The notes beneath the pieces were generated by a model, which saw only the letters and a program-made list of their open reading frames with translations, made no database searches and was not told the origin of the DNA. From the sequence record NC_101842.1: a stretch of 64,000 nt of DNA, one strand, 5' to 3'. The position numbers were made by a program, and so were the translations under genes. The stretch comes from a phage. This document shows, in pieces, positions 20,781 to 34,199 of the stretch (the first letter of the stretch is position 1; every line of letters starts with the position of its first letter).

Positions 20781-21031
20781 CGACCATCTTCTGAGGTGAT
20801 ATAGTTTCCACGACAACTAAGAGAGGAGAGCACTGTGGAGACTAAAATCTTAATTCTTGCTGTGGTAGATACAACCGAAGGAGCTATATTCGAATCTGCA
20901 GGAGGGTATTTCTACCTACCATACGGAAAAAGAACTTCCGAGCCAAGTAAAGATTCAATCCTCAAAGTGTTCCCGTGTGCTTTCTGGCTGGAGATTTTGG
21001 TATAAGATTGCAGAGGATTTGGGAGAGAATT

Positions 21032-21226
21032 ATGAGAAACAAGAAAGAACTTTACTCCGGTGAGTGGATCAACGATCAACAGGTGGGAGAGGTAACCTGC
21101 TTCCGATGTTTTACCAGGTACAATCTTAAAACTGCACCAAAAAGTGTTCCAAAGACTGACGGTTACTACATAAAAGAACCTCATTGCCCAAAATGTAAAT
21201 GCCGATTGTACTGGAGCAATCTGTAA
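21032..21226 (+). CDS. small zinc-ribbon protein
   Basis: CxxC...CxxC (CFRC...CPKC); GGGAGAGAA RBS; track ORF 20975-21226 trimmed. Confidence 0.5.
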   Translation: MRNKKELYSGEWINDQQVGEVTCFRCFTRYNLKTAPKSVPKTDGYYIKEPHCPKCKCRLYWSNL

Positions 21227-21230
21227 GAGG

Positions 21231-21258
21231 TTGACATCTGAAAACTGCAGTGTATAAT
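21231..21258 (+). promoter_or_regulatory. sigma70 consensus promoter
   Basis: TTGACA, 16-nt spacer, TATAAT, upstream of the ORF at 21290. Confidence 0.55.
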
Positions 21259-21289
21259 ATACGCATAAACTAACAGAGGGTGATGTATT

Positions 21290-21481
21290 ATGGTAATTTT
21301 TAACCGGGATGGTATCATAGTTAGACAGCACCCGTTCCTTGAATACTATCAAATTGAGCAATGGTGCTACGGGGATTGCAGTCACTCCTATGGGCAAAGT
21401 TGGGGATATCGTACAGTTTTTGAATCCACAGACCTTGACAAAGTAAAACAGAAAGTTTTAGAACTTCTTAACAACAAGTGA
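21290..21481 (+). CDS. hypothetical protein
   Basis: AGAGGG RBS downstream of consensus promoter. Confidence 0.55.
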   Translation: MVIFNRDGIIVRQHPFLEYYQIEQWCYGDCSHSYGQSWGYRTVFESTDLDKVKQKVLELLNNK

Positions 21482-21491
21482 GTATCGTGCC

Positions 21492-21824
21492 ATGGTAACA
21501 TTGGAAAGACGTAAAGCTATTGCCGCCACACTGGCAGACATCTTTTGGGATTGTAATTTAAAATCTACCCGAAATTGTGGTGCATCTGTAGATGTATTAT
21601 TCCCACGGCCTACTATTGTTGCAATGGGCAACCTGCTCGATGTGGTATATGGAGCATGGGACAAGGAAGGTGGATTCTATATCTGGCAACCTGACTACGG
21701 GACTTGGAAAGAGGTTAGTGGTTCTTCGGACTTCACTCCTGCAGTGGCTAAAATGGATGGCTGGAAAATCTATGTCGGTAACGACATGGAACTGAAAGGC
21801 GAAATTGTTTACTGGTTACCTTAA
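21492..21824 (+). CDS. hypothetical protein
   Basis: ORF in same-strand array; weak RBS. Confidence 0.5.
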   Translation: MVTLERRKAIAATLADIFWDCNLKSTRNCGASVDVLFPRPTIVAMGNLLDVVYGAWDKEGGFYIWQPDYGTWKEVSGSSDFTPAVAKMDGWKIYVGNDMELKGEIVYWLP

Positions 21825-21845
21825 GAAAGTCCAGGAGATAAAGTT

Positions 21846-22091
21846 ATGAACAAAGGGTGGACATTTGTAGACGGCGTTAAAAACATGCCTCTAGGAAAGT
21901 ATATTGTAGCCATGGCAGATGAGAATGGCAAGGTTGATTTCGGAGTTTGCGAGGTTGTTCTTGCAGGATCTGGTGACTATGCTCACAAAACTGGGATAAT
22001 TAACGGTCATTTCTACTTTGATTACAACCCTGTTGTGGCGTATATGGCTATGCCAGAGTTCGAGCTCCCAAAGGAAGGTGCAGATGTTTAA
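21846..22091 (+). CDS. hypothetical protein
   Basis: CAGGAGA RBS. Confidence 0.6.
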   Translation: MNKGWTFVDGVKNMPLGKYIVAMADENGKVDFGVCEVVLAGSGDYAHKTGIINGHFYFDYNPVVAYMAMPEFELPKEGADV

Positions 22092-22156
22092 GCTTAAATC
22101 TGCATGGAACATCGCTGTGGGGGGACGAGATCCGTATCCCAGGTGGAAAGACCATT

Positions 22157-22282
22157 ATGAAAATATCTCGTATCGAGTACGAAGGTGATCGTGTATTTCA
22201 TATCTTTGCAGAAGATGGTCGAGAAATTTATATACAGGCAGGCTCTCACATCTATATTCGTAAGAAAGGGGAGGACAAATGA
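22157..22282 (+). CDS. small hypothetical protein (41 aa)
   Basis: Not in ORF track (<60 aa); GGTGGAAAG RBS; stop overlaps next start (ATGA). Confidence 0.4.
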   Translation: MKISRIEYEGDRVFHIFAEDGREIYIQAGSHIYIRKKGEDK

Positions 22283-22608
22283 CAGAGATCATCATTTCAA
22301 CTGCAGGGTATGTATTCCTGACAATCATTGCGCTGGCTATTCTGGTGGCGGTGTATGGATTTGTTATCCTTCCTATCCTTGAGACATTTAGTTTGTGTCG
22401 GTGTTGGAGAAAAGCTTACGGTCCACAACCATGGAAGGACTGGCCCCACCTGGTGCGCTTAGCGTTCTCTTATGCTTACGATCACTCCAGTAGTGCATGC
22501 ATAACCGGATACCACGCCCACAACTGGAGCTGGGAAGGGTTGAGGAAATGGAATGTTACAAAGACCATACCTCTGCGCATGTACAAACCTAAAAACAAAG
22601 ACAACTGA
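22279..22608 (+). CDS. membrane protein (hypothetical)
   Basis: N-terminal hydrophobic helix YVFLTIIALAILVAVYGFVILPIL; GGGGAGG RBS. Confidence 0.6.
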   Translation: MTEIIISTAGYVFLTIIALAILVAVYGFVILPILETFSLCRCWRKAYGPQPWKDWPHLVRLAFSYAYDHSSSACITGYHAHNWSWEGLRKWNVTKTIPLRMYKPKNKDN

Positions 22609-23220
22609 TACTTGAAAATTCCTGGCATATCAAGTATAAGGGGGATTTCTAAAATGGATTTCCTCCTTTTGATATTTCACCGGGCTGGATATTTTAAAAT
22701 TCTTAGAAAATCAGAAAATGGATCGAAAACTAAAATGGATTTTTCAGAGTAGGCGCGACAAGCTGAATAACTCATCCTATCGTTTGCACCATATTCCAGG
22801 CCACCATTATAGATTTCCCACACATGCTAACCTCCCTCTACTAGAACTTCCTCCACTTACCCTTGACCTTCTATGGTAACAATCTAACCGCTATCTTGAA
22901 GTTGCGGTGCAGCTTTCCAGGTACTCGATCTACTTTTCATTTCAGGGCTTGGATTTTCTGAAAATTTTTCTCGATAAATTTCTCAGTACTCGATCTGTTT
23001 TTCGTTTTCTGAATCGGATTTTCTGGAAATCGTTCCGGCTCTCAACCTGAAATTTTTGGGGACGAAATCGATTTTTCGTTTTCAGAAATGGATTTTTAAA
23101 ATTTCTATATGGGAATATTTTAGTGGATACTATTTTATAGTAAATTGTTACGGAGGGTAATTAGCGTGCTAATTAAATTTATTAAATGCGAGGAGTTCTC
23201 ATTTAGAATCTTGAATGATA
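22609..23220. repeat. non-coding repeat region: ~66-bp imperfect tandem duplication plus AAATGGAT motifs
   Basis: GTACTCGATCT at ~22921 and ~22987; GGATTTTCTGAAAAT / GGATTTTCTGGAAAT; AAATGGAT at ~22651, 22715, 22732, 23086; no ORFs. Confidence 0.6.
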
Positions 23221-23425
23221 ATCATTCTCGTTTGCAGAATAACGGGCAGGCCCGGTGATTGTCTCCCGGCCCCTGTTGCCCCGGCTTGTTATTATAGTAT
23301 CACACAGGACAAAGAAAGCAAGGATTTTTTTTGCATAAATTTTTAAATGATAATGATAACCGTTCTCATTTTATGCAGCGCTCATCCCTGGTGGTTGTCT
23401 CCCCCGTCACCGGTGCCTGCCGTCC
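23215..23425. repeat. two direct copies of a GC-rich element with GTCTCCC core
   Basis: GGCAGGCCCGGTGATTGTCTCCCGGCCCC (~23245) and GGTGGTTGTCTCCCCCGTCACCGGTGCCTGCCGT (~23390), each preceded by GATAATNATT...CTC. Confidence 0.5.
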
Positions 23426-23623
23426 TTTCGATAGGTATATTGTGCCACCTGTCGGGGCCGCTGTCAACACTTTTCAAAAAATTTTTCTAACCTGATGCGC
23501 TAACCGCTGCAACCTGGCAGGGCCAGCCTGGCAGGACCTAACTGACCAGGTGGGAGAGGGTGAAATCTTGCAAACCTGGTAGGCCCATGCTGTAGGGTAA
23601 ACAATTGAAGAGGAGGTACAAAA

Positions 23624-23656
23624 ATGAAAGGTAATGCTACTCACCTGGAAATGTAG
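23624..23656 (+). other. 10-codon mini-ORF with strong SD (possible leader peptide)
   Basis: GAAGAGGAGG, 7 nt, then ATG AAA GGT AAT GCT ACT CAC CTG GAA ATG TAG. Confidence 0.25.
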
Positions 23657-23756
23657 TGATTAATGATACAGAAGCGCGGGAACATAAAGAAGAGTACGAA
23701 AAAATGGTGGTTAACCTGGCGGGGGGCTCTATCATAAAAATAATTTAAAATAATCG

Positions 23757-23785
23757 TTGACAACAAGGTTAATCATGGTATTATT
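23757..23785 (+). promoter_or_regulatory. sigma70-like promoter
   Basis: TTGACA then TATTAT-like -10 with 16-17-nt spacing. Confidence 0.5.
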
Positions 23786-23834
23786 ACCCTACAAGGTGAA
23801 CAACACCGCACTAACCAGTAAAGAGGATAAATTT

Positions 23835-24032
23835 ATGAACGCATACGGGATCAAAGTACGTCGCAACACTCGCCAGGTGGTCACCGATCAAATGGTTTGC
23901 CAGGTGGACGTAACCATCAACAACGGGCAAGGCCTTTATAAATTCCGTCGCGGTCATAGCTATACCCTGCAACAGCTTAACCGTTGCGCCCTGACAAAAG
24001 GTCAGATCAACCACTGGTTTAATAAAAAATAA
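23835..24032 (+). CDS. small basic hypothetical protein
   Basis: ATG after AAGAGGATAAA RBS; track ORF 23757-24032 trimmed. Confidence 0.55.
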   Translation: MNAYGIKVRRNTRQVVTDQMVCQVDVTINNGQGLYKFRRGHSYTLQQLNRCALTKGQINHWFNKK

Positions 24033-24034
24033 TG

Positions 24035-24063
24035 TTGACATATGGTCTGACACAAAATACACT
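24035..24063 (+). promoter_or_regulatory. sigma70-like promoter
   Basis: TTGACA, 17-nt spacer, TACACT. Confidence 0.55.
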
Positions 24064-24095
24064 GAAATCGCAAAAGACACTAAGAGGATAAAATC

Positions 24096-24494
24096 ATGAA
24101 AACCACTACCTTTAATTTTGATAATGCGGACTTTTCTTTTTCTGATGTCAAGAACTGCCGCCGTGATCGTGGATTTTACAAGGCTTATAATCTGGTGGGC
24201 CTGGACGATGACAATAATTTGCACGAAGTAGCTGAGATCCGGTATTATGCCGCCGCCAGCGGGAACACTCACTACTGCGTGTTTTGGATTCACGACAACA
24301 AGAACAATAAGTACGGTTATACTGGCGGCAAGGCGAGCGGTCACGGTTACGATAAAGCTAACGCAGCACTTGAGAGCGCATTAAATGCTATGGGGATCAC
24401 TGCCGACGGCTGGATCTACGAAGAAGAGTTTTTGTCGGCACTTGCTGACCACCTGGGCTATAAAAAACACATTGTAACATGCGCCCACGAATAA
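24096..24494 (+). CDS. hypothetical protein
   Basis: AAGAGGATAAAATC RBS downstream of promoter. Confidence 0.65.
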   Translation: MKTTTFNFDNADFSFSDVKNCRRDRGFYKAYNLVGLDDDNNLHEVAEIRYYAAASGNTHYCVFWIHDNKNNKYGYTGGKASGHGYDKANAALESALNAMGITADGWIYEEEFLSALADHLGYKKHIVTCAHE

Positions 24495-24499
24495 AAATC

Positions 24500-24556
24500 A
24501 TTGACACGCTGCAAAATTTAAGTAAACTAGACACAAAAGGCGGGAATGTTTCCCGC
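24500..24556 (+). promoter_or_regulatory. sigma70-like promoter plus 5'-UTR GC hairpin
   Basis: TTGACA, 16 nt, TAAACT; then hairpin GGCGGGAATGTTTCCCGCC before the RBS. Confidence 0.5.
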
Positions 24557-24576
24557 CAGCACAAAGGAAAAAGATC

Positions 24577-24972
24577 ATGAATAAGAACGTACGCCGCATC
24601 ATGAACGAACTGGCAAACGATGAAAAAATTATTGATATGCATTTGGTCAACATTTGCCGCCGTTGTGTAACATATAACAACCGCGCCGCAAAAGCGCGTG
24701 AGATGAACGCAAAAGGCACCTTAAAGCCCTTTCAGGTGGTTGTAAAATCTATAACTAGCGCAGCAGGCCAGGCGCAGGACCACAACAACGAGAGCGCTAA
24801 TATTGATCCGTCTTACGTAATGAAACGGATCCGGACTTGCAAGAATAAAGAGCAGGTATATAACGTCATAGATTGGCTGGACTCCCTGGGCGATGTGGTT
24901 TACAATAGGTTTTCTGCAGCTATCGAGATCCAGCTTGACAGATTGGACGGGAAAGTGCTAAAAACTTATTGA
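24577..24972 (+). CDS. hypothetical protein
   Basis: AAAGGAAAAAG RBS. Confidence 0.65.
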   Translation: MNKNVRRIMNELANDEKIIDMHLVNICRRCVTYNNRAAKAREMNAKGTLKPFQVVVKSITSAAGQAQDHNNESANIDPSYVMKRIRTCKNKEQVYNVIDWLDSLGDVVYNRFSAAIEIQLDRLDGKVLKTY

Positions 24973-24973
24973 G

Positions 24974-25019
24974 TTTATTTTTAGATGGCCTTGACACCAG
25001 GGCCATCAATAAAGTAAAC
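24974..25019 (+). promoter_or_regulatory. repeated palindromic promoter element, copy 1
   Basis: TTTATTTTTAGATGGCC-TTGACACCAG-GGCCATCAATAAAGTAAAC; TTGACA sits in the loop of the GATGGCC/GGCCATC inverted repeat. Confidence 0.5.
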
Positions 25020-25052
25020 TAACCACAGTTGAGCGGAAAAGGAGGCTTAAAG

Positions 25053-25172
25053 ATGAGCACTACACGCCAGCACACAAAGGTAACCATCATCGTTTGCATC
25101 ATTGGGTACATCCTGGCGCAAATGTTGATGGGTAGCGCCAACGGTGTCGCAAAATTTTTCTTAAACTTTTAA
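25053..25172 (+). CDS. small hydrophobic peptide (39 aa)
   Basis: Not in ORF track; AAGGAGG RBS; MSTTRQHTKVTIIVCIIGYILAQMLMGSANGVAKFFLNF. Confidence 0.45.
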   Translation: MSTTRQHTKVTIIVCIIGYILAQMLMGSANGVAKFFLNF

Positions 25173-25225
25173 TTGACAAGCTAACTTAAATCGATATAAT
25201 AAGCACATAAACGGGAAAACTTCCC
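25173..25225 (+). promoter_or_regulatory. sigma70 consensus promoter plus 5'-UTR hairpin
   Basis: TTGACA, 16 nt, TATAAT; hairpin GGGAAAACTTCCC. Confidence 0.6.
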
Positions 25226-25251
25226 AGAACACACAAAAGGAGAAAAACACC

Positions 25252-25593
25252 ATGACTACTATGACCGCCTCAGAAAAAGCTATGCAGATCGCTGAACTGA
25301 AAAAACAGATCGCAGACCTTGAGAATAAGATCGATAACTTTGAAATCGACGAGGACAAGTACGACGAAAACTATGATGAATGGTTAGACGAGATCTACGG
25401 CGAAATTATGATCGGAAACATTTCTTTTCTTCCGTCGCGTATCCTCAAGGAGCTAGATCCTATCGCTTACCGCTGCGGATTTAGCGACTACATCGACAGC
25501 CTGGATATTGAGGACGATGAAGAATACCAGGAATTACAGACAGAGTTAGAAGAAGCAAAAGAAGAGCTTGCGGAGCTGGAAGAAAACGAGTAA
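25252..25593 (+). CDS. acidic coiled-coil hypothetical protein
   Basis: AAAAGGAGAAAA RBS; D/E-rich. Confidence 0.65.
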   Translation: MTTMTASEKAMQIAELKKQIADLENKIDNFEIDEDKYDENYDEWLDEIYGEIMIGNISFLPSRILKELDPIAYRCGFSDYIDSLDIEDDEEYQELQTELEEAKEELAELEENE

Positions 25594-25595
25594 GC

Positions 25596-25640
25596 TTATT
25601 TTTAGATGGCCTTGACACCAGGGCCATCAATAAAGTAAAC
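25596..25640 (+). promoter_or_regulatory. repeated palindromic promoter element, copy 2
   Basis: Near-identical to copy 1. Confidence 0.5.
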
Positions 25641-25682
25641 TTTATACTGTTAACACTGAACTAATGCATAGGAGTTAAAACC

Positions 25683-25928
25683 ATGGCAGCACTAATCACC
25701 AAATATTATGCCCCTACCAACACCAAAAGCGCCCGTATCATGGTAAAAGGCTTCGGACGTAAAAAGGTGTACACCTGGGATTATGCCTTAGACACGGAAG
25801 ACAACTACACCAACGCAATGACCGATTTTATTAATGAACTAAATAAGCAGATCTTGACAAGTTATAAAGTGACCGATATTGCTTATATAGGTGAAGGCGG
25901 GATCTGTTTTGTAGGCATTGTGAAATAG
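25683..25928 (+). CDS. hypothetical protein
   Basis: TAGGAGTTAAAACC RBS. Confidence 0.6.
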   Translation: MAALITKYYAPTNTKSARIMVKGFGRKKVYTWDYALDTEDNYTNAMTDFINELNKQILTSYKVTDIAYIGEGGICFVGIVK

Positions 25929-25976
25929 TTATTTTTTCGGTGGTCCTGGCTGCAGGGCCATCTATAAAGATAATTT
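25929..25976 (+). promoter_or_regulatory. degenerate fourth copy of the palindromic element
   Basis: TTATTTTTTCGGTGGTCC-TGGCTGCA-GGGCCATCTATAAAGATAATTTA. Confidence 0.35.
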
Positions 25977-26002
25977 ATCAACACCATGAAAGGAGAAAGT
26001 AC

Positions 26003-26356
26003 ATGATCAGCGGGGCTAGTTTTATTATTGGCGCTATTGCTACGGCTTTAATTGTAAACAAGATCCAATCTAAAAACGAAAAAGATAGCAACGCGCTCAC
26101 AGAATACCCATTTTGGGTATTCAACGACAACGAAGACTACATAATCAAGTACAAAGATGAGAGAGGCGACCAGGTAACACCGCGACCGATCCCAGCTTAC
26201 AAGATGCAGGAAACACTATACCGCCTAAAGGCCGGAGGCGCAAAGATCGTAGACTTTTGGGGATATGATTGCAAGGATCAGGAGGTCATAAAACGTCGTA
26301 TCCGGGCGATTCAGGCAAATATTGAAATTAGTAAAGGGGAAATTTATGAAAATTAA
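26003..26356 (+). CDS. membrane-anchored hypothetical protein
   Basis: AAAGGAGAAAG RBS; N-terminal helix MISGASFIIGAIATALIV; track ORF trimmed. Confidence 0.55.
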   Translation: MISGASFIIGAIATALIVNKIQSKNEKDSNALTEYPFWVFNDNEDYIIKYKDERGDQVTPRPIPAYKMQETLYRLKAGGAKIVDFWGYDCKDQEVIKRRIRAIQANIEISKGEIYEN

Positions 26357-26543
26357 TTTCGAAAAAATTGTAAAGCGCCCCCACGATTCCGAAGAGCTGC
26401 CGGAACGCCGCCAGCGTAACAATAAACTGAATAAACCGAAAAGGTTCGGGAAGATCTGGAGGAATCACTATGATCGCAAATTACCGGGCCTGCTTTTGGA
26501 ACGTGAACGACAGGCGGAACGATACCGCCACAAAGGCAAATAA
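26346..26543 (+). CDS. small Arg/Lys-rich basic protein
   Basis: ATG after AAAGGGGAAA; overlaps upstream stop. Confidence 0.5.
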   Translation: MKINFEKIVKRPHDSEELPERRQRNNKLNKPKRFGKIWRNHYDRKLPGLLLERERQAERYRHKGK

Positions 26544-26550
26544 CAACCAA

Positions 26551-26580
26551 CGCCCCGCCATTGTGCGGGGCTTTTTATTT
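26551..26580 (+). terminator. rho-independent terminator
   Basis: CCCCGC-CATTGT-GCGGGG then CTTTTTATTT. Confidence 0.65.
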
Positions 26581-26713
26581 CTATCCTACGAATAGCGCCC
26601 CTGGTTGGCCCCACAAACGCCACAAAAGCCCCTACCTATGCAATCCCCTTTCTTAGCCTGAAAACATCACCCAGGACCGTTTTATGGTGTTAAAAATATC
26701 TTTTATTTAAAGC

Positions 26714-26742
26714 TTGACACCTTGGAATCGCCTGGATATACT
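26714..26742 (+). promoter_or_regulatory. sigma70-like promoter
   Basis: TTGACA, 17 nt, TATACT. Confidence 0.5.
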
Positions 26743-26777
26743 AACCACATCAAAGCAAGAAGAAAGGAGTAAACGCC

Positions 26778-27038
26778 ATGCGTAAATTAAAAAATTTTGA
26801 TAAAGTCGATGTTGTCCTGAATAATTTTTACTACTGCAATAATAAGGCCGTTTGGTGGCGTGATAGTTCCACCGATAAAGTTAAAGCGCGCTTTCTCCAG
26901 GGGCACTGGCAAGGCCGCCCAGTGATTAAGATCCGGGGGCAATTGGTAGCGTTTAAAAATTGCCGCCGTGTTGATGACGTTGAAGAGATTCTAAACATTT
27001 TACGCCACAATAATTTAAAAAATAGTGTTGACAAGTAA
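26778..27038 (+). CDS. hypothetical protein
   Basis: AAAGGAG RBS. Confidence 0.6.
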   Translation: MRKLKNFDKVDVVLNNFYYCNNKAVWWRDSSTDKVKARFLQGHWQGRPVIKIRGQLVAFKNCRRVDDVEEILNILRHNNLKNSVDK

Positions 27039-27055
27039 GCCTCAATAAGTATACT
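27028..27055 (+). promoter_or_regulatory. sigma70-like promoter
   Basis: TTGACA, 16 nt, TATACT; followed by 5' hairpin GGCTGGAAAACTTCCCGCC. Confidence 0.5.
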
Positions 27056-27112
27056 TAAACACACAGGCTGGAAAACTTCCCGCCACTAACAAAGAAAATA
27101 GGAGAAAATATC

Positions 27113-27736
27113 ATGACCACCGTTAACATTACCGCAGGTTACAATTTATCTTTCGACGTGCTGACCGACGAACAAAAAGAAAAAGCCGTTGAAATGGTCC
27201 GCGAAAGAGAAGAACACAGCGGGGATAACTTTTTTGCAGAAAGTGTAATTGAATACTATAAAGAATATGTTTTTCCAGAGTATGGCCTTGAAGATACCGA
27301 AGTACATTGGTCAGGCTTTTGGTGCCAGGGTGACGGCGCGTCAATCAGTGCTGAAAACGTGGATTTAGAAAAATTTTTGCGTAAAGTAAAGGCCCTGACC
27401 AAGTTCCGATCAATTCGTCACTTGTTCGGCACAATGCACGATGGCGAGTTATCAGCCAGTGTTGAGCGTGATCCATATAGCCGCTATAGTCACGAAAACA
27501 CTGTAAGCGGATACATTGATACCACCTGGCTAGATCTGACCGCCAAACAAGAAAACAAAGTGGAAGACCTGGAAGAGCTGATCACCGAGACGGTACGGGA
27601 GCTATCCCGCAAGGTTTACGTAGACCTGGAGGAGGCCTATCTTGAACAGTTTACTACCGAAAACCTGATCGGCCTTATTGAGGCCAATGATTGGCGGTTT
27701 GATGTGGATGAATATGGCGAGATGACTTTTTCATAA
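27113..27736 (+). CDS. acidic hypothetical protein
   Basis: TAGGAGAAAA RBS; 207 aa; no confident family. Confidence 0.65.
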   Translation: MTTVNITAGYNLSFDVLTDEQKEKAVEMVREREEHSGDNFFAESVIEYYKEYVFPEYGLEDTEVHWSGFWCQGDGASISAENVDLEKFLRKVKALTKFRSIRHLFGTMHDGELSASVERDPYSRYSHENTVSGYIDTTWLDLTAKQENKVEDLEELITETVRELSRKVYVDLEEAYLEQFTTENLIGLIEANDWRFDVDEYGEMTFS

Positions 27737-27744
27737 ATAAAGTG

Positions 27745-27801
27745 TTGCAATAACCTAAAAACCTGCTATATTAAAACTCAAGGGGGCAAGACGTTTGCCC
27801 C
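27745..27801 (+). promoter_or_regulatory. sigma70-like promoter plus 5'-UTR hairpin
   Basis: TTGCAA, 16 nt, TATATT; hairpin GGGGGCAAGACGTTTGCCCC. Confidence 0.45.
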
Positions 27802-27825
27802 ACACAAAACAAAGAGGAAAACATT

Positions 27826-28206
27826 ATGAAAAACACTACCAAGGCTATTGACACCGTTATGTTTAACCTGGTTACATTCCGTGAAGATATGAAAGATCTT
27901 CCACGTGAAACAGTGTGCGATCACATTGAAAACTATCGCAAACTAATCAAAGAGTTGCCCCTAAAACGTGACCAGTATGCGGCTAACGCTATGCTCAACG
28001 CCATGATCAAAAAGATGATCCAGTGTGATTTAACCCTGGCCTATGACTATGCGGGTGGTCGTTTTGCAGTATACAATCAGCCCGTGCCCGGTATGGGCAC
28101 CACCGAAGAATTGCACGCGCTCAATCTAAAACAAGACGTATGGGATAACATGCCCCGCGTGGTGGTGTGGGCAGAAAGCGGAAAGATTTACGGCGATAAT
28201 TTTTAA
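27826..28206 (+). CDS. hypothetical protein
   Basis: AAAGAGGAAAA RBS. Confidence 0.65.
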   Translation: MKNTTKAIDTVMFNLVTFREDMKDLPRETVCDHIENYRKLIKELPLKRDQYAANAMLNAMIKKMIQCDLTLAYDYAGGRFAVYNQPVPGMGTTEELHALNLKQDVWDNMPRVVVWAESGKIYGDNF

Positions 28207-28270
28207 TCAGGTAACAGGCGGCATATTTGCCGCCTTATTATTAAACAGAACTGCAAAAGAGGTACATAGA

Positions 28271-28642
28271 ATGGAATTTATTATTTTGGCTGTAGTAGTT
28301 GCCTTGTTCAACGCCTGGATCGCTGGCAAGATGGGTAGATCCTCCTTTTTATGGTTTATTATATCTATTTTCCTGGGGGTGGTTGCAACTATTGTACTTG
28401 TTATCCTTGCAATTGTTGACAAGGGGAATAATAGAAAGGGTAAAGTATTTTCAGACCTGTACGACGCTCAAACGTTTGTCAACGCCTATTATAGTGATCT
28501 TCCAGTCTCCCTACGCTGCAGCCTGGCACAACAAGTTTTCGATGAGGCTAAAACCAGAGATCAAGCCCATGAGATATGTTTAACTGAGGCGGATCGCCTA
28601 TTTGAGAGGAATAGAAAATATGTGGGCCAACCGTTTAAATAA
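28271..28642 (+). CDS. membrane protein (two predicted TM helices)
   Basis: AAGAGG RBS; hydrophobic stretches IILAVVVALFNAWIAG and FLWFIISIFLGVVATIVLVILAIV. Confidence 0.6.
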   Translation: MEFIILAVVVALFNAWIAGKMGRSSFLWFIISIFLGVVATIVLVILAIVDKGNNRKGKVFSDLYDAQTFVNAYYSDLPVSLRCSLAQQVFDEAKTRDQAHEICLTEADRLFERNRKYVGQPFK

Positions 28643-28841
28643 TGCCACGTTAATTAATCCCTTTAGTGAAGATTTGAAGCCAGCCGCCTGGCGTGATGGA
28701 TTCAATAACGAACGCTTTATTTTCAAGCCTGATCTTGAGGAATTTTATAACAATGGATCGAACAACGACAGAGATAATTTTTCTTGTGGTGTGCGTAGTG
28801 ATGGTACTCCTGGTGGCCATTGTAAACCACGTCACTACTAA
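28620..28841 (+). CDS. hypothetical protein
   Basis: ATG after GAGAGGA; overlaps upstream gene by ~23 nt in another frame. Confidence 0.4.
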   Translation: MWANRLNNATLINPFSEDLKPAAWRDGFNNERFIFKPDLEEFYNNGSNNDRDNFSCGVRSDGTPGGHCKPRHY

Positions 28842-28862
28842 CAGGGGGGAAAGGGGGAGACG

Positions 28863-28982
28863 ATGACACCCAAGGATAAGCCCCGCACCGATAAGGCGCG
28901 CCGTGTTATGGTATGGCTTGAGATCATCGCCCTTGAAATATTGTTAGGGGTAGGGATGTACTTTATCGCTGTAAGTAACTAA
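28863..28982 (+). CDS. small membrane peptide (39 aa)
   Basis: Not in ORF track; GGGGGAG RBS; MTPKDKPRTDKARRVMVWLEIIALEILLGVGMYFIAVSN. Confidence 0.45.
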   Translation: MTPKDKPRTDKARRVMVWLEIIALEILLGVGMYFIAVSN

Positions 28983-28986
28983 GAAC

Positions 28987-29015
28987 GGCCCCCCGATCAT
29001 GGGGGCCTATCTTTT
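28987..29015 (+). terminator. rho-independent terminator
   Basis: GGCCCCCC-GATCAT-GGGGGCC then TATCTTTT. Confidence 0.6.
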
Positions 29016-29030
29016 AAAAAAAAAAAAAAA
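29016..29030. repeat. A15 homopolymer
   Basis: 15 consecutive A directly after the terminator. Confidence 0.9.
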
Positions 29031-29043
29031 TTCTTCCGGGGTG

Positions 29044-29096
29044 TTGCAATCCGGTCCGGAATGTGGATAATAACAATCAACGGGGAGCTAATCCCC
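29044..29096 (+). promoter_or_regulatory. sigma70-like promoter plus 5'-UTR hairpin
   Basis: TTGCAA, 17 nt, ATAATA; hairpin GGGGAGCTAATCCCC. Confidence 0.45.
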
Positions 29097-29127
29097 ACCA
29101 CCACAAAAACCAGAAAGGAGAAACAAA

Positions 29128-29328
29128 ATGAGCAACAATATCCGCGTTATTAACTTCAAAAAAGAAGAAAAAATTGCCGTGCTGATTGACGGTCAAGAAA
29201 TCTTCAAGGGCGACTATGAAGATCATCAAACGGCGATTAGTATCACTCGCGTGATTGGTTACCATAATTTTTACCCCCAAGGCGCTGAGGCAGCGGTTAA
29301 ACGAATCAAAGAGATTGTAGGCCTGTAA
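29128..29328 (+). CDS. hypothetical protein
   Basis: AAAGGAGAAA RBS. Confidence 0.6.
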   Translation: MSNNIRVINFKKEEKIAVLIDGQEIFKGDYEDHQTAISITRVIGYHNFYPQGAEAAVKRIKEIVGL

Positions 29329-29330
29329 AA

Positions 29331-29376
29331 TTTATTTTTAGATGGCCTTGACTCCAGGGCCATCAATAAAGTAAAT
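29331..29376 (+). promoter_or_regulatory. repeated palindromic promoter element, copy 3
   Basis: TTTATTTTTAGATGGCC-TTGACTCCAG-GGCCATCAATAAAGTAAAT. Confidence 0.5.
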
Positions 29377-29422
29377 TTAAACCCTGTTAAATATACCACG
29401 CAGTTAACAAGGAGTGATAGAC

Positions 29423-29722
29423 ATGTTTATCCAGGCTAATAATCTTTATTTCTTTGATGGTCAGATCGTAGACGGTGTGGAAGTGGAGATCACCGGGTGC
29501 CCTGGCGGTCAGGCTATGACTTTTCGGAATAATGCCTTTGATGATTCTCATATCGTTATGAGAATGGAAGTTACGAAGCTGGACGACAAGAAAACACTTA
29601 TTGACTATTCTGTGAAAGATCATCCAGACTACCGCATGATCCATGGCGATTTGTGCATTGTTGACCGTGACAAGGTGGGCGGCATTGTGATCGCTATTGT
29701 GAACGATGTTTTCTCAAACTAA
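29423..29722 (+). CDS. hypothetical protein
   Basis: AAGGAGTGATAGAC RBS; track ORF trimmed. Confidence 0.6.
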   Translation: MFIQANNLYFFDGQIVDGVEVEITGCPGGQAMTFRNNAFDDSHIVMRMEVTKLDDKKTLIDYSVKDHPDYRMIHGDLCIVDRDKVGGIVIAIVNDVFSN

Positions 29723-29739
29723 TTTCAGCAGGTGATTTT

Positions 29740-30090
29740 ATGAAAGTCAAACTATATTACCTTAATGAGCTTAACCCCCTTGCCCAGGTCCGCGCCCTAG
29801 CTAATACCTTGATTTGTGAGAAATCTGCATATTGTGTTGAGCTTAACGCCATGCGTGAACGTCTCAAAGGGGGTTACTTTGACATCCATGCTGCAATCAA
29901 CGGCCTGAATATGGAATTTATACGCTTACGTAACAGCCGCCGGAATCTGGCAAGAATGGAACAAGATCCGGCCCACCTTCGTAAGCTGGTTATTGAAAAT
30001 CATCTGATGTTTAATGCCGAGGGTGATTATTACCATTTTCACCGCAAACGCTGGTACCGTGGCGGCAATACAGGCAAGAATGCAAAATAA
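29740..30090 (+). CDS. hypothetical protein
   Basis: ORF in array; basic C-terminus. Confidence 0.55.
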   Translation: MKVKLYYLNELNPLAQVRALANTLICEKSAYCVELNAMRERLKGGYFDIHAAINGLNMEFIRLRNSRRNLARMEQDPAHLRKLVIENHLMFNAEGDYYHFHRKRWYRGGNTGKNAK

Positions 30091-30128
30091 GGCCCCAGGC
30101 AGGGCCTGCAGCGATATAATCACATAAA

Positions 30129-30160
30129 GGCTATGCGGTTGCATGGCCTTTATTATTTTA
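30129..30160 (+). terminator. rho-independent terminator
   Basis: GGCTATGC-GGTT-GCATGGCC then TTTATTATTTTA. Confidence 0.55.
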
Positions 30161-30291
30161 GCGTTACAGCGGCCCCAAGGCGCTTAAAAAATTTTTAAAG
30201 AAGTACTTGCATCAAGTCCTACAATATGGATAATAGGACGTGTCAGGGGGGCGGCCCCCAATCATTAACCGGATAGATAGGAGTTAAAATC

Positions 30292-30576
30292 ATGGCTATT
30301 GTCACCGTTGGCGATGTAGTGGAAATGGAAGCAAAATACTTAAAAGCGGGTATGCATATCCTACGGAATGATCAAGAATTGTTATTAACGATGGTAGACT
30401 ATAATCCCGGCCAGGATTATCCAAGCATCGACTACTTTTTTGAGTATGTTGATGAAGAATTGAAAGAGGATGAGGCTTATCAGGGTGAATTCTGCAATTT
30501 CTTTTGCCCTGATGAGGTTGTAAAAGTTATCTATCAACCTGGAGTACCTTTCCCGCTGCACGCTATCAATAAATAA
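30292..30576 (+). CDS. hypothetical protein
   Basis: TAGGAGTTAAAATC RBS; upstream hairpin GGGGGCGGCCCCC. Confidence 0.6.
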   Translation: MAIVTVGDVVEMEAKYLKAGMHILRNDQELLLTMVDYNPGQDYPSIDYFFEYVDEELKEDEAYQGEFCNFFCPDEVVKVIYQPGVPFPLHAINK

Positions 30577-30630
30577 ACCTGGCGGGGCCGAAAAGGCCCC
30601 AATTATGAAAATAAAGAGAGGTAAATCATC

Positions 30631-30864
30631 ATGATGGAACAAATTAAACGCGCTGAGGCTATTAATGGCAATGTGATCTATTTTGTCAGCAAAAACGAAA
30701 AAGGCGTACCATATGCGGCGGTAATAGTACAACCTGACGGCGATTATTGGTTTACTGTATACGGATCTTATTCTTTCGGGCGTCCGGTTCATGATAGAAT
30801 TTTGAAAGTAGCAAATCCGACCGGGAAAAATATCACAGCAGAAAAATTTTTTGAAAATAGTTGA
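30631..30864 (+). CDS. hypothetical protein
   Basis: AGAGAGG RBS. Confidence 0.55.
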   Translation: MMEQIKRAEAINGNVIYFVSKNEKGVPYAAVIVQPDGDYWFTVYGSYSFGRPVHDRILKVANPTGKNITAEKFFENS

Positions 30865-30916
30865 CATGACCATATAAGACTGTAATATATAAATCAAAAG
30901 GGGGGCAACAAGCCCC
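30861..30916 (+). promoter_or_regulatory. sigma70-like promoter plus 5'-UTR hairpin
   Basis: TTGACA, 16 nt, TAATAT; hairpin GGGGGGCAACAAGCCCC. Confidence 0.55.
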
Positions 30917-30941
30917 ACCAACCACAAAGAGGATAAAAATC

Positions 30942-31121
30942 ATGGCTATTATTGCAAAGACTGAGATCGTAGGCTTAGATTCTATTCTCCTCGCATATGA
31001 GGAAGCTATAGAAATGTATGTGGTTTCCTATGGTGAATATATCCGTGAATATAAATCTATTGATCTAGCTTTTGAATGTTATATTCGCCAGGTCAATAAA
31101 GCATATGATGATTATCGTTAA
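30942..31121 (+). CDS. small hypothetical protein (59 aa)
   Basis: Not in ORF track; AAAGAGGATAAAAATC RBS behind promoter and hairpin. Confidence 0.5.
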   Translation: MAIIAKTEIVGLDSILLAYEEAIEMYVVSYGEYIREYKSIDLAFECYIRQVNKAYDDYR

Positions 31122-31203
31122 AATAGTTTGACAATAGTCAACAATCTGGTAAAGTGTACTACATAGCGCGGGAATACTTCCCGCCATTAATGAGGGTAAT
31201 TTA

Positions 31204-31341
31204 ATGAAAACTTTCAACGCAACAGCCTCGACAATTGGTTATATTATTACAGTACAAGCCGTGGATCTGGTAGCAGCAGCAAACAAGATTAAAAAGATGA
31301 TTCCGCCAGGTAGTGAATTTTCCGTTTGGGAAGTAAAATAA
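31204..31341 (+). CDS. small hypothetical protein (45 aa)
   Basis: Not in ORF track; promoter-hairpin-RBS cassette nearly duplicated at the next gene. Confidence 0.45.
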   Translation: MKTFNATASTIGYIITVQAVDLVAAANKIKKMIPPGSEFSVWEVK

Positions 31342-31424
31342 ATCTTGACAATAGTTTATTACTTGATAGGCTGTATTTCGTAGGGCGGGGCAATAAGGCA
31401 ACGCCCATTAATGAGGGTAGAATC

Positions 31425-31529
31425 ATGTTAGAGAAAATTTTCACGGTTGTAGTAGTTGGCCTGGCATTATCGGTTGGAGTGGTTGCAACTATGGCTAACA
31501 TGATCCTATCTTCCCACGGTATCGGTTAA
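31425..31529 (+). CDS. small hydrophobic peptide (34 aa)
   Basis: MLEKIFTVVVVGLALSVGVVATMANMILSSHGIG behind a duplicated cassette (TTGACAATAGT...hairpin...AATGAGGGTA). Confidence 0.45.
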   Translation: MLEKIFTVVVVGLALSVGVVATMANMILSSHGIG

Positions 31530-31530
31530 G

Positions 31531-31755
31531 GTGAATCAAATGATCACGAATAAGACAGGTAAAACAGAATTTTTACGCGGCTTGCAAATAGGTAAGCCTG
31601 AGATCTGGCATTGCACTAAAACACCACGTGACGAAATGAAAGACTTCACCGCCACGCTGCAACGGGTAAAGATATCCATCGCGCAGAAAAAGGCCTTGAT
31701 AGTGGTGGAAGGTGAGATCCCTCAAACCGTTGTTATAGTTGAGCGTACAGCATAG
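31531..31755 (+). CDS. hypothetical protein
   Basis: GTG start directly after upstream stop. Confidence 0.5.
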   Translation: MNQMITNKTGKTEFLRGLQIGKPEIWHCTKTPRDEMKDFTATLQRVKISIAQKKALIVVEGEIPQTVVIVERTA

Positions 31756-31846
31756 TTTAATTTATAGCGATACCTGAAAATTAACCAATAAATCATAAAC
31801 AGGCGGTTACCGCCGCCTTAAACGTAGCAGAAAGAGGATAGACACA

Positions 31847-32131
31847 ATGAAAAAGATGATCGCAGTAGTTGCCCTGGTTGTTGGACTTAATGCGCCTGTA
31901 ATGGCTAAAGAGCTGGCAAAAGAGGTTGATCTAACGGATATCCATGCCGTCAATCAAATCGGGGTTACTTATCGCTTATGCCTTGCCGCTAAAACTTTTA
32001 ATGACGGTACAACAGAGTACTACGGATTCGAGGGTATCCGGTGCGGTGAGCTTGCTCGCGACCTTAAGGAAGATCCAGACCTGGAGGATCTACCCATAAC
32101 CGTGAACGGTAAAGCTTACGTTAACCGTTAA
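31847..32131 (+). CDS. secreted/periplasmic small protein
   Basis: AAAGAGGATAGAC RBS; signal peptide MKKMIAVVALVVGLNAPVMA. Confidence 0.65.
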   Translation: MKKMIAVVALVVGLNAPVMAKELAKEVDLTDIHAVNQIGVTYRLCLAAKTFNDGTTEYYGFEGIRCGELARDLKEDPDLEDLPITVNGKAYVNR

Positions 32132-32133
32132 CC

Positions 32134-32268
32134 GTGAAAAAGATAATCATTACCTTGGGGATTGTGGCGGGATCGCTGGCGCTCTTTCCCCTTATGGTTA
32201 GATATGTGCTGATCAGTATTGTCCTGGTGGTCAGTGATCTACTAGAAACGGTTGGCACCTTGTTTTAA
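32134..32268 (+). CDS. possible small membrane peptide (44 aa, GTG start)
   Basis: Hydrophobic ORF; no clear RBS. Confidence 0.3.
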   Translation: MKKIIITLGIVAGSLALFPLMVRYVLISIVLVVSDLLETVGTLF

Positions 32269-32280
32269 AGAGCGATAAAA

Positions 32281-32472
32281 ATGAATGTTGAACAAGTTAG
32301 AAAGGTATTGGCGGTACTGCGTTATCATAATCATAGAAAGGTCATAGACGATCCTGATTATGTTGATTCAAGTCTGGAAGAGGATACACTACAAGCCATA
32401 AGTAACATGCAAGAATTGCTAAAGCGCATGACAGAGAAAAACCGACCGGACTACATAGGCGAAAAAATATAA
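32281..32472 (+). CDS. hypothetical protein
   Basis: ORF followed by terminator. Confidence 0.55.
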   Translation: MNVEQVRKVLAVLRYHNHRKVIDDPDYVDSSLEEDTLQAISNMQELLKRMTEKNRPDYIGEKI

Positions 32473-32487
32473 TCCTTATTAACTAGA

Positions 32488-32518
32488 AAACAGGGCTTGC
32501 AATGGTCCTGTTTTTTGT
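32488..32518 (+). terminator. rho-independent terminator
   Basis: AAACAGG-loop-CCTGTTT then TTTTGTTA. Confidence 0.5.
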
Positions 32519-32530
32519 TATACTTATTAC

Positions 32531-32578
32531 ACGGCAGGCACCTGGCGACGGGGGGAGACAATCACCGGGCCTGCCTGT
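32531..32578. repeat. inverted copy of the GC-rich GTCTCCC element seen at 23.2-23.4 kb
   Basis: GGGAGACAATCACCGGGCCTGCC is the reverse complement of GGCAGGCCCGGTGATTGTCTCCC at ~23245; the left half matches the second 23.4-kb copy. Confidence 0.6.
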
Positions 32579-32601
32579 CATATAAGAACTATAAAAACCG
32601 T

Positions 32602-32660
32602 TGACATCTGCCAGGTGGTGGGGTAACATTTATCTTGAAGGGGCAAAAGTGCCCACACAA
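32602..32660 (+). promoter_or_regulatory. sigma70-like promoter plus 5'-UTR hairpin
   Basis: TTGACA ... TAACAT; hairpin GGGCAAAAGTGCCC. Confidence 0.45.
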
Positions 32661-32683
32661 CAACCAGAAGAGAGGAAAACATT

Positions 32684-32956
32684 ATGTCAAGCTGGATTAA
32701 TCAAGAAGTCGAATCACGTTTTAATGCTATTTGGGATCTCATCGAAAAAGAGGACGGAACATCAAGCCCTTATCTCAATAATCTTGAATTCCATTTCGTG
32801 GAAGCGATGAACGCAGAACATGATCACGAAGGTGGTGCGGATGAGTTCGCTAAATGGTATGGCTTCAACAATGCCAACGAAATGATCGAGGCGGTTGTAC
32901 TCCAGGCTGAGGAAGATTATCAATTAAAAACGCTTGAATTCTGCCGCCGTAAGTAA
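32684..32956 (+). CDS. acidic hypothetical protein
   Basis: AGAGAGGAAAAC RBS. Confidence 0.6.
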   Translation: MSSWINQEVESRFNAIWDLIEKEDGTSSPYLNNLEFHFVEAMNAEHDHEGGADEFAKWYGFNNANEMIEAVVLQAEEDYQLKTLEFCRRK

Positions 32957-33018
32957 TAAGATAATGACACGGGCCAAAAGGCCCACTAAACAAAAACCAC
33001 ATAAAGAGGAAAAACATC

Positions 33019-33282
33019 ATGAAACGTCTTGACCAGCTCAAACTAGTTCAATATATGGCTTATCGTGTTCTGGAAGTCCAGAAAGGTAGCAAAAAAGAGG
33101 TTTGCGAGAAAGCTTATAAGATCTTTACCCGCAAAAAAGATGACTGGATGCTACGCCAGACCAAAAAGGCTGACATCTTGGGGTACCTGGAAGAAGAGAT
33201 CCGACTTGAAGAACAAGAAGAGATCCGCCGTAGTGAGGCAGATTATCAGGCAGCTTGGGAAAACTGGATGAGCAACAAATAA
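33019..33282 (+). CDS. hypothetical protein
   Basis: AAAGAGGAAAAAC RBS after hairpin GGGCCAAAAGGCCC. Confidence 0.6.
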   Translation: MKRLDQLKLVQYMAYRVLEVQKGSKKEVCEKAYKIFTRKKDDWMLRQTKKADILGYLEEEIRLEEQEEIRRSEADYQAAWENWMSNK

Positions 33283-33301
33283 TACAACAAGATGAACGGT
33301 C

Positions 33302-33327
33302 AGGGGCTTAAAGCCCCTTTCTTTTTG
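33302..33327 (+). terminator. rho-independent terminator (end of + strand island)
   Basis: AGGGGC-TTAAA-GCCCCT then TTCTTTTTG. Confidence 0.7.
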
Positions 33328-33929
33328 TCTTCTCTTTTCCTACCATAAACGGCCCTACCTGGCAAGTGGAATAATTGACGAGCCATCAATCCCACACACT
33401 GTACAAATATACATGGAAAATAACTATTGCATAATTTTTCATTGTGTGGTAGCAAGGCCATTTTTACCCGTTTTACCTTCCAAAATTGCACGTAATGCCG
33501 CTATTGCACAAATTTTAACCTGATGCACATCTCCAATATCTTGTCAACAACTAAAAATCTTTATAAGTCATGCACTTACATAACCACAAAAGCGTGTTCT
33601 ACGTGAAAAATCGAGTATAACTATAGCCGCCAGATCTCAGAATTTACGTACGCTCACCAGTCTATAGCCTGCTAAGTATTTATTCCAACCATAGAATAAC
33701 GGAATAGTCAATACCTGCATAAAATAATTATTCGTGTAAACTGCATAACATAAATCGGCTAGGATGTCAACATTTTTCGTAAACAGCTCGAAATTATAAC
33801 GGTGAGTTATAATAAACAGAGAAATCTTTAGTCGTCTAATGTTTACTGTACATTACTATACTGACTGGAATCATTAGATGACTAAGAGAAAGATAAGAAA
33901 TCATTAACAATGCAATTGTTTTATTCGTA

Positions 33930-34115
33930 ACAATAAGGCAACTATGCAAACGAATGGCATGGCGCGACGGAGTCGCGACATAATATAAAAGCAGTAACCA
34001 TCACCCCCGTGATAGTTTGTCTGCAAACTATTAATCAGATCATAGTTGCCTTGTATTTAGTTAATCATGACATAACAAGCAAGGCAACTATAGATCTGCT
34101 AATAGTTGCCCTGCT
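33930..34115. repeat. iteron cluster: AAGGCAACTAT motif x4 (two direct, two inverted)
   Basis: Sites at ~33935 (+), 34042 (-), 34081 (+), 34102 (-); the last two form a 9-bp-arm palindrome around AGATCT. Confidence 0.6.
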
Positions 34116-34194
34116 TTTATATTATGTCATGCTAATTATAATCAGTGCGATTATTGTCATGTATAATTATTGTCATGCAAACGAATGGCATGGC
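33944..34194. repeat. 20-nt exact direct repeat ATGCAAACGAATGGCATGGC
   Basis: Copies at ~33944-33963 and ~34175-34194. Confidence 0.65.
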
Positions 34195-34199
34195 TGATT

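Follow-up and report, generated by a model that had tools for sequence, protein, structure and literature searches.

We analysed a 64,000-nucleotide (nt) stretch of phage DNA (record NC_101842.1; hereafter, the window), which is 99.6% identical to Escherichia phage nomine, an rV5-like myovirus of the genus Vequintavirus. The window contains a cluster of small hypothetical genes interrupted by short intergenic spaces. The annotated genes of the region all lie on the + strand, which is therefore the sense strand of the early transcripts. A repeat search of the window identified a single 49-nt repeat family among these genes, with four members, all on the + strand and all within 4.4 kb (Table 1). 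Here we describe this element, which combines a putative promoter with a conserved hairpin, and consider what it may do.

Table 1. Copies of the 49-nt element and neighbouring features in the window.
Feature	Position	Strand	Details
131-aa open reading frame (ORF)	24577-24972	+	upstream of copy 1; stop codon abuts hairpin base; promoter 24501-24528
Copy 1	24972-25020	+	reference; -35 TTGACA 24991-24996; -10 TAAACT 25015-25020
Copy 1 stems	lower 24972-24981 with 25011-25020; upper 24984-24993 with 24998-25007	+	loop ACAC
Cassette between copies 1 and 2	25021-25592	+	39-aa ORF 25053-25172; internal consensus promoter 25173-25200; 113-aa ORF 25252-25593
Copy 2	25593-25641	+	98% identity to copy 1; -35 TTGACA 25612-25617; -10 TAAACT 25636-25641; same two-part hairpin
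Cassette between copies 2 and 3	25642-25926	+	81-aa ORF 25683-25928
Copy 3	25927-25975	+	divergent, 73% identity; -35 position reads CTGGCT (no -35); between 81-aa and 117-aa genes, inside operon
Intrinsic terminator	26552-26571	+	GCCCCGC...GCGGGGC, then TTTTT; first canonical one downstream of copies 1-3
Copy 4	29329-29377	+	94% identity; -35 TTGACT 29348-29353; -10 TAAATT 29372-29377; lower-stem pair G8-C56 changed to A-U
Hairpins of the second promoter layout (see text)	24539-24557, 25212-25226, 27067-27085, 27783-27801, 30902-30916, 31168-31186, 32641-32655		

The family is well separated from chance. Its 24-nt core, GATGGCCTTGACACCAGGGCCATC, has three matches at no more than one mismatch, against 0.00 expected from 100 shuffles, and a covariance model built from the four copies scores them at 75.7-85.3 bits (E 1e-15 to 4e-18). 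Every copy begins 0-3 nt past the stop codon of a + strand ORF (24577-24972, 25252-25593, 25683-25928 and 29128-29328). Beyond its end, 28-46 nt lead to the next ATG (25053, 25683, 26003 and 29423), which is preceded by a Shine-Dalgarno (SD) sequence. A preliminary description of this DNA had reported three near-identical copies and one divergent copy, each between a stop codon and the next small gene. Both statements hold for all four copies, and the positions it gave were off by just 2-3 nt. It had also proposed looking for more copies across the whole genome; a covariance-model search of the 138-kb nomine genome returned exactly these four, on a single strand and within 4.4 kb.

The element is confined to one group of phages. 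Of 50,697 phage records, 120 contain it, every one a Vequintavirus, and all four positions are kept in more than 95% of the 120 genomes. At the DNA level, a search beyond Vequintavirus reached no other genus, and 5,426 complete E. coli genomes, searched as a check for host mimicry, yielded no match. A pattern scan of IMG/VR produced 18 loci, three of which (on two contigs) are rV5-like, while the other 15 are chance matches without a hit to the model. No Rfam family matched the element in a scan of positions 20000-36000 at E<=1. A fourth blastn match in phita32 was considered as an extra copy and rejected, being a copy 3 that blastn can detect. In the same region, 17 GenBank records of the MG0656xx series (for example, locus L030) are named 'Campylobacter phage' although they are 91-97% identical to rV5-like coliphages; this host label looks doubtful, and the record inspected, C7, is marked UNVERIFIED. 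The sequence of the element was not found in the papers of the literature searched, and neither the rV5 genome paper nor its GenBank record annotates or lists it. In the Murica record, the equivalents of copies 3 and 4 (two of the four copies) are labelled as a 45-bp 'terminator'.

Read as RNA, the + strand of every copy folds into the same structure, which spans the whole 49 nt. Its lower stem is rich in A/U and 10 bp long; a 2x3-nt internal loop separates this stem from an upper one, also of 10 bp, which is capped by a tetraloop. The minimum free energy (MFE) of the predicted fold is -21 to -25 kcal/mol, with z-scores between -4.9 and -7.1 for the four copies. The internal loop is asymmetric in all of them (UA/AAU in copies 1, 2 and 4; UC/UAU in copy 3). 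The tetraloop varies, reading ACAC, ACUC, ACGC, GCUG, GUAG or GUAA.

We compared the structure across 54 instances of the element, 38 of them distinct, taken from 16 sources whose genomes are closely related (88-100% identity). Standard base pairs fill 98.7% of the 760 pair cells, a share that falls to 34-58% if the 3' partners are shifted by 1-3 columns. Two-sided changes occur at four lower-stem pairs, namely 8/56 (GC, AU or GU), 9/55 (UA or CG), 11/53 (UA, AU, GU or GC) and 12/52 (AU or UA), and none of 500 shuffles reached the observed covariation score. The pairing also has a direction. Among the cells that are not Watson-Crick pairs, the + strand has 75 G.U pairs and 9 mismatches, whereas the - strand has 6 G.U pairs and 78 mismatches. 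Likewise, the + fold is the more stable one in 38/38 distinct sequences, with a mean MFE of -24.5 kcal/mol versus -14.9 for the - fold. The 3' arm CAGGGCCATC and the core of the lower stem do not change in any of the 38.

Copies 1, 2 and 4 also resemble sigma70 promoters. Each carries TTGACA or TTGACT, an 18-nt spacer and TAAACT or TAAATT, for 10, 10 and 9 of 12 consensus matches, respectively, and a T-rich tract resembling an UP element, TTTATTTTTA, precedes the -35 box. The next start codon follows 33-46 nt after the -10 box, a usual distance for a promoter. Across the 27 distinct sequences of these three copies (16 sources), TTGAC is constant except for one TTGATA, while the sixth base may be A, T, G or C and loop positions 3 and 4 vary. 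A constant TTGAC followed by a free sixth base fits a -35 constraint superimposed on the constraint of the stem.

Copy 3 separates the two constraints. None of its 11 distinct sequences has a -35 box; the position reads CTGGCT, CTGGTT, CTGGTA or CTGGTG. The -10 box has drifted as well (GATAAT, GATAGT, GACAGT or GATAAC), and so has the loop. The stems nevertheless keep all their pairs, by wobble changes (A>G, C>U and U>C) and by two-sided swaps. Relative to copy 1, all eight substitutions at paired positions keep pairing, and five of the 11 unpaired positions have changed. The predicted RNA fold of copy 3 reaches -22.7 kcal/mol on the + strand and -8.1 on the - strand. Because the hairpin has been kept without a promoter, selection acts on its structure independently of promoter function. 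Copy 3 is a purely intercistronic hairpin.

The arrangement of the genes would place the hairpins within transcripts. The 131-aa ORF has its own predicted promoter, so that read-through transcripts would carry hairpin 1. A scan of the + strand from 24501 to 26552 found no terminator-like site; hairpins 1-3 therefore lie inside one unit of about 2 kb with internal promoters. The scan for intrinsic terminators flags none of the four copies, yet it finds canonical terminators nearby, at 26552-26571 and 30124-30153. The 8 nt that follow the stem contain between zero and four U residues and are not conserved. The hairpin has an A-rich 3' side and an A/U-rich stem base, and the U-rich tract lies 5' of it. 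To judge by its missing U-tract, the hairpin is not a canonical intrinsic terminator.

The copies also mark the ends of deletions. In five relatives the missing DNA is exactly what lies between two copies, and one hybrid element is left in each. In ECP26 and in the IMG/VR contig L014, a 621-bp unit is gone and the single remaining element aligns to both copy 1 and copy 2, its left flank coming from copy 1 and its right flank from copy 2. The cassette between copies 1 and 2 is likewise absent from ime and phiWec189. In 241Ecol014PP it is the 334-bp unit between copies 2 and 3 that is gone. The left part of its hybrid comes from copy 2 and the right part from copy 3, and the crossover falls within CAGGGCCATC.ATAAAG, which the two copies have in common. 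The carriers differ in the alleles flanking the deletion: upstream, ime is 100% identical to HdK5, while ECP26 is rV5-like. These differences point to at least two to three independent deletion events or to a deletion spread by recombination. The hybrid of 241Ecol014PP (locus L026, 5701-5761) reads TTGACA, 17 nt, GATAAT, a better spacing than in either parent, and has two new lower-stem mismatches (pairs 11/53 and 12/52).

We also examined 12 genomes, a set too small for good statistical power, for switches between lineages at the elements. Compared with HdK5, ime is near-identical up to 25949 and divergent from 25950, inside copy 3, with identity returning at 29064; this single switch gives anecdotal support. 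Insertions and deletions (indels) occur elsewhere in the cluster as well. YP-6 lacks 27023-27734, which holds a 207-aa gene; the gap starts and stops immediately before promoters, at 27028 and 27745. MiataMamis has about 560 bp extra at 26700/26701. Both rV5 and HMD-6 lack approximately 29715-30080, and contig L014 lacks approximately 29798-30094 (a 116-aa gene). A gene replacement downstream of copy 4 in HMD-6 was considered and rejected, since the alignment reflects the roughly 365-bp deletion of rV5 together with annotation differences. Other indels, such as that of YP-6, end at ordinary promoters, indicating that recombination at intergenic regulatory sequences is general in the cluster. 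No stretch of homology open to recombination there is longer than the 49-nt repeat.

The closest known counterparts of the element are the promoter-early stem-loops (PeSLs) of the T4-like phages RB49/phi1, T4/PST and KVP40/nt-1 (Arbiol et al. 2010, PMC2839356; Comeau et al. 2014, PMC4122927). A PeSL unit starts at the stop codon of the gene upstream and continues with an AT-rich tract and a sigma70-like promoter to an SD sequence and an ATG; 'degraded' PeSLs exist. Its stem-loop, in which G-T pairs are allowed, lies upstream of the -35 box, between the boxes, downstream of the -10 box or overlapping one or other box. PeSLs concentrate in hyperplastic regions rich in ORFans, where recombination between them produces indels and mini-circles (PMC2839356; PMC4122927).

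All four copies of the 49-nt element share the stop-to-ATG intergenic layout of PeSLs. Copies 1, 2 and 4 add what look like sigma70-type -35 and -10 boxes with an AT-rich upstream tract, and copy 3 is comparable to a 'degraded' PeSL. A stable stem-loop sits on the promoter boxes, the 20-bp hairpin overlapping both and containing G.U pairs. The surrounding cluster of small hypothetical genes, with its many indels between relatives, corresponds to a hyperplastic, ORFan-rich early region, and the copies flank deletions that left five genomes with a hybrid element. By the look of the sequence, then, every PeSL feature open to bioinformatic inspection is present; the T4-like host range, a matter of taxonomic scope and not of mechanism, is not. 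Several differences stand beside these likenesses. The element belongs to a Vequintavirus rather than a T4-like phage, its copies are near-identical over 49 nt whereas PeSLs share a loose common motif, and its 20-bp two-part hairpin encloses the whole promoter whereas a PeSL has a short stem of a G-run and a C-run. It has no U-tract, and one copy lost its promoter while keeping its hairpin by compensatory evolution. Terminator activity and mini-circles have been shown for PeSLs themselves. It is apparently undescribed in Vequintavirus and appears to be a further example of a PeSL-type element.

The shape of the hairpin suggests a second comparison. Substrates of E. coli RNase III typically span about two helical turns, possibly as stacked helices; an internal loop confines cleavage to one strand, and a 3' hairpin protects upstream RNA (Pertzev & Nicholson 2006, PMC1540722). 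The element has this shape in all copies, with 10 + 10 bp (about two turns) around an asymmetric 2x3-nt internal loop. Next to the loop-closing pair come a U.G pair and then a U-A step, as in the R1.1 site of phage T7, though without a known cleavage site this step has no assigned place in a proximal or distal box. We folded the T7 early sites with the same tool. These sites are R0.3, R0.5, R1, R1.1 and R1.3; the T7 RefSeq record carries no RNase III site annotation, and the positions used are those reportedly given by Dunn and Studier in 1983. The hairpins at these positions form a small family. They lie in intergenic spaces next to promoters, and their upper stems of 9-10 bp contain G.U pairs.

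The Vequintavirus element resembles this T7 family in several respects. Both are small sets of related hairpins in the intergenic spaces of an early operon transcribed by the host polymerase, beside promoters. Both combine an upper stem of about 10 bp with G.U pairs, a 4-5-nt loop, an internal loop and a lower stem into about two helical turns, and in both, cleavage of a single strand would leave a protective 3' hairpin. Among the differences, the T7 hairpins contain no complete sigma70 promoter, and the covariance model of the element finds no match in the T7 genome, so that there is no sequence homology. The comparison bears on how the element may work and not on membership of a family, and cleavage here is putative. 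A looser parallel is with the repetitive extragenic palindromes (REPs) and bacterial interspersed mosaic elements (BIMEs), bacterial intercistronic palindromes that stabilise upstream mRNA. These, too, are imperfect palindromes, about 35-50 nt long, that recur between the genes of a single operon, and they serve as 3' barriers in RNA and as recombination substrates. However, REPs are chromosomal and number in the hundreds, while the element appears in one phage genus, is absent from the 5,426 E. coli genomes and carries a presumptive promoter.

We propose that the element is a PeSL-like composite that serves as an early promoter, a transcript-level hairpin and a recombination linker, a proposal to which we give an even chance of being right. 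As duplex DNA, copies 1, 2 and 4 would act as early promoters for the host sigma70 polymerase, each driving the next small gene. In read-through RNA, all four copies would form the 20-bp two-part hairpin, starting at the upstream stop codon. The hairpin would then act post-transcriptionally, as an RNase III-type processing site, a protective 3' hairpin or both, which would break up the polycistronic early transcript into units and make the message upstream more stable. Of the roles open to the hairpin, RNase III-type processing or 3' protection is the most likely and is favoured over termination. As direct repeats of 49-61 bp, the copies would also let homologous recombination delete the cassettes between them and perhaps insert or exchange such cassettes. 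We infer both the promoter activity and the involvement of a nuclease from the sequence.

A more ambitious version of this proposal seems to us possible but rather doubtful. The same 49 nt would be used twice, as a DNA promoter and as an RNase III-type RNA hairpin, in addition to serving as a portable cassette linker, thereby extending the PeSL principle beyond T4-like phages with nuclease-based insulation. In this layout, the UP-like tract would double as the lower stem's 5' arm, with the -35 box at the apex and the -10 box as the 3' arm of that same lower stem. Each cassette would be transcriptionally autonomous and yet be cut free of its upstream neighbour.

Several points weigh against the composite reading. 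The 18-nt spacer and the TAAACT -10 box are suboptimal, and the other promoters of the cluster have spacers of 16-17 nt. Ribosomes that finish translation at the upstream stop codon would melt the lower stem. The proximal and distal boxes of RNase III sites cannot be placed on the hairpin without a known cleavage site, and the literature searched held no Vequintavirus transcript data. Owing to the close kinship of the genomes, the independent compensatory events behind the covariation are few, approximately 5-6, and the alignment used for the pair counts was fitted to the model, though it is essentially gap-free. As for recombination, the other boundary of the divergent ime tract (29064) falls in another promoter-bearing intergenic region and not in copy 4. 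Furthermore, with all four copies present in more than 95% of genomes, recombination between them is rare and may be incidental.

The strongest competing explanation is that the hairpin is a terminator or attenuator, as claimed for PeSLs, which would curb read-through so that the cassettes are expressed mainly from their own promoters. A stable hairpin right behind a stop codon has the right place for this, PeSL stem-loops cut lacZ expression as strongly as rrnB T1 (PMC2839356), the Murica annotators chose the same label for their equivalents of copies 3 and 4, and a genuine terminator overlapping a promoter exists elsewhere in the window, at 32484-32524. Nevertheless, we consider termination unlikely. 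A U-tract is missing after the full hairpin and after the upper stem in all copies, where the 3' side is A-rich; the A/U-rich stem base is poor for intrinsic termination; and the scan that recognised the canonical terminators at 26552 and 30124 passed over every copy. Copy 3 lies in mid-operon, upstream of genes that lack a promoter of their own, and the lacZ assay presumably cannot tell termination from RNA processing. Alternatively, the hairpin might not be cut by a nuclease but bound by an RNA-binding protein that the phage encodes, for example a factor for translation or antitermination. The invariance of the CAGGGCCATC arm and the lower-stem core in 38/38 sequences exceeds what the structure needs and speaks for such a protein, but among genomes that are 88-100% identical invariance is weak evidence. 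With no candidate protein identified, and a freely varying tetraloop that would be unusual for a specific protein-binding hairpin, we think this improbable.

Other explanations place the function in DNA. The preliminary description had read the element as a promoter, which remains plausible for sigma70 in copies 1, 2 and 4, placed as they are for the downstream genes. It had also described a 7-bp inverted repeat, GATGGCC/GGCCATC, around TTGACA; this is literally correct for the same three copies but understates a 20-bp two-part structure, in which the repeat becomes part of the 10-bp stem around the 4-nt loop. From these it had suggested that the genes may be co-regulated through an operator for a dimeric regulator, which would be a phage or host protein acting on duplex DNA at three or four promoters. 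Copies 1, 2 and 4 probably do share one common promoter type, but the operator part of the claim is very unlikely. The perfect dyad around the -35 box and a conservation that reaches far past the promoter hexamers would suit an operator, and regulators are encoded elsewhere in the phage genome. However, that conservation is strand-asymmetric, tolerating G.U wobble on the + strand only, and the paired region runs for 20 bp through the UP-like tract and the -10 box, much farther than a 7-bp half-site would reach. Protein half-sites would not be expected to covary as the lower stem does; its covariation points to base pairing instead. With 17 bp from centre to centre, the half-sites would probably face different sides of the helix. 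The whole genome has just four copies, gathered within 4.4 kb. Copy 3, in which the dyad is broken (GGTGGTC/GGCCATC) in 11/11 distinct variants and the promoter is gone while the fold is perfectly kept, argues against a symmetric DNA operator serving a promoter. A protein may still bind copies 1, 2 and 4, though nothing found here requires one. Slightly less probable again is a DNA cruciform or single-strand hairpin targeted in recombination or replication or by a nuclease (for example, Endo VII), with the promoter hexamers incidental. Recombination junctions do fall inside the element, its + strand folds with DNA parameters (-12.3 kcal/mol, z -6.0), and the PeSL authors speculated on a protein targeting the stem-loop. 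A cruciform requires both strands, though, and the - strand of copy 3 reaches just -5.7 kcal/mol (z -1.75); plain homology of 49-61 bp suffices for the crossovers, and the other indels of the cluster end at ordinary promoters without such a hairpin. Finally, the copies could be functionless remnants of duplicated intergenic DNA, as their small number, clustering and common orientation might suggest. This is the least probable explanation and already disfavoured, given that 8/8 paired-position changes between copies 1 and 3 keep pairing while 5/11 unpaired positions changed, and that all four positions persist in more than 95% of the 120 genomes.

The cluster contains further regulatory sequences of a different design. 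In a second layout, that of the cluster's ordinary early promoters, strong sigma70 promoters (TTGACA, 16-17 nt, TAnAnT) are followed 8-12 nt past the -10 box by a short GC-rich hairpin, such as GGCGGGAATGTTTCCCGCC or GCGGGAATACTTCCCGC, then by a CA-rich spacer and an SD sequence. These hairpins are probably stabilising stem-loops at the 5' ends of transcripts. At 32484-32524, a canonical intrinsic terminator, AAAACAGGGC...GGTCCTGTTTTTT, holds a -35-like TTGCAA in its loop, with an extended -10 box, TGnTATACT, 16 nt downstream; terminator and promoter thus overlap here in a sequence unrelated to the 49-nt element. Farther away, a terminator-like hairpin, GCCCTGCCCGAAAGGGTGGGGC, followed by a T-rich tract, occurs at 8947-8973 and at 19081-19107, the two being 96% identical and about 10 kb apart. 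The stretch of about 1 kb at 22880-23750 has no annotated coding sequence in nomine and corresponds to the 'non-coding' box of the rV5 paper. At 22911-23096 it contains three direct repeats, degenerate and 47-57 nt long, at a spacing of 65-74 nt. This non-coding stretch could be an origin or a regulatory region.

Some genes of the cluster have relatives far from Vequintavirus. In a protein search, the 81-aa ORF has homologues at 35-46% identity in unrelated phages, among them the ~60-kb coliphages slur01 and SeppeHuegi, Pseudomonas myoviruses and, at the early end of their genomes, T7-like Klebsiella phages. The 65-aa ORF at 26346-26543 is annotated as T7 gp1.1-like in Murica and 241Ecol014PP; in T7, the gp1.1 gene belongs to the early region and adjoins the R1.1 RNase III site. 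The rV5 annotation lists RB49-like ORFans in the same cluster. Together with the homologues of the 81-aa protein in unrelated phages, these ORFans fit a traffic of cassettes between phages.

If the composite reading is right, the shuffling of early 'ORFan' cassettes at promoter/stem-loop linkers would not be peculiar to T4-like phages, and the rV5-like Vequintavirus, a large group of therapeutic coliphages, would have a convergent or shared strategy. The element would explain differences in gene content between closely related candidates for phage therapy, and it would correct the annotation of sequences that are now unannotated or called a 'terminator'. For phage engineering, it may be a 49-nt part to use or to avoid, because direct repeats delete the genes between them. 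It also offers a compact, testable case of one sequence that would be constrained both as DNA, by a promoter, and as RNA, by a hairpin.

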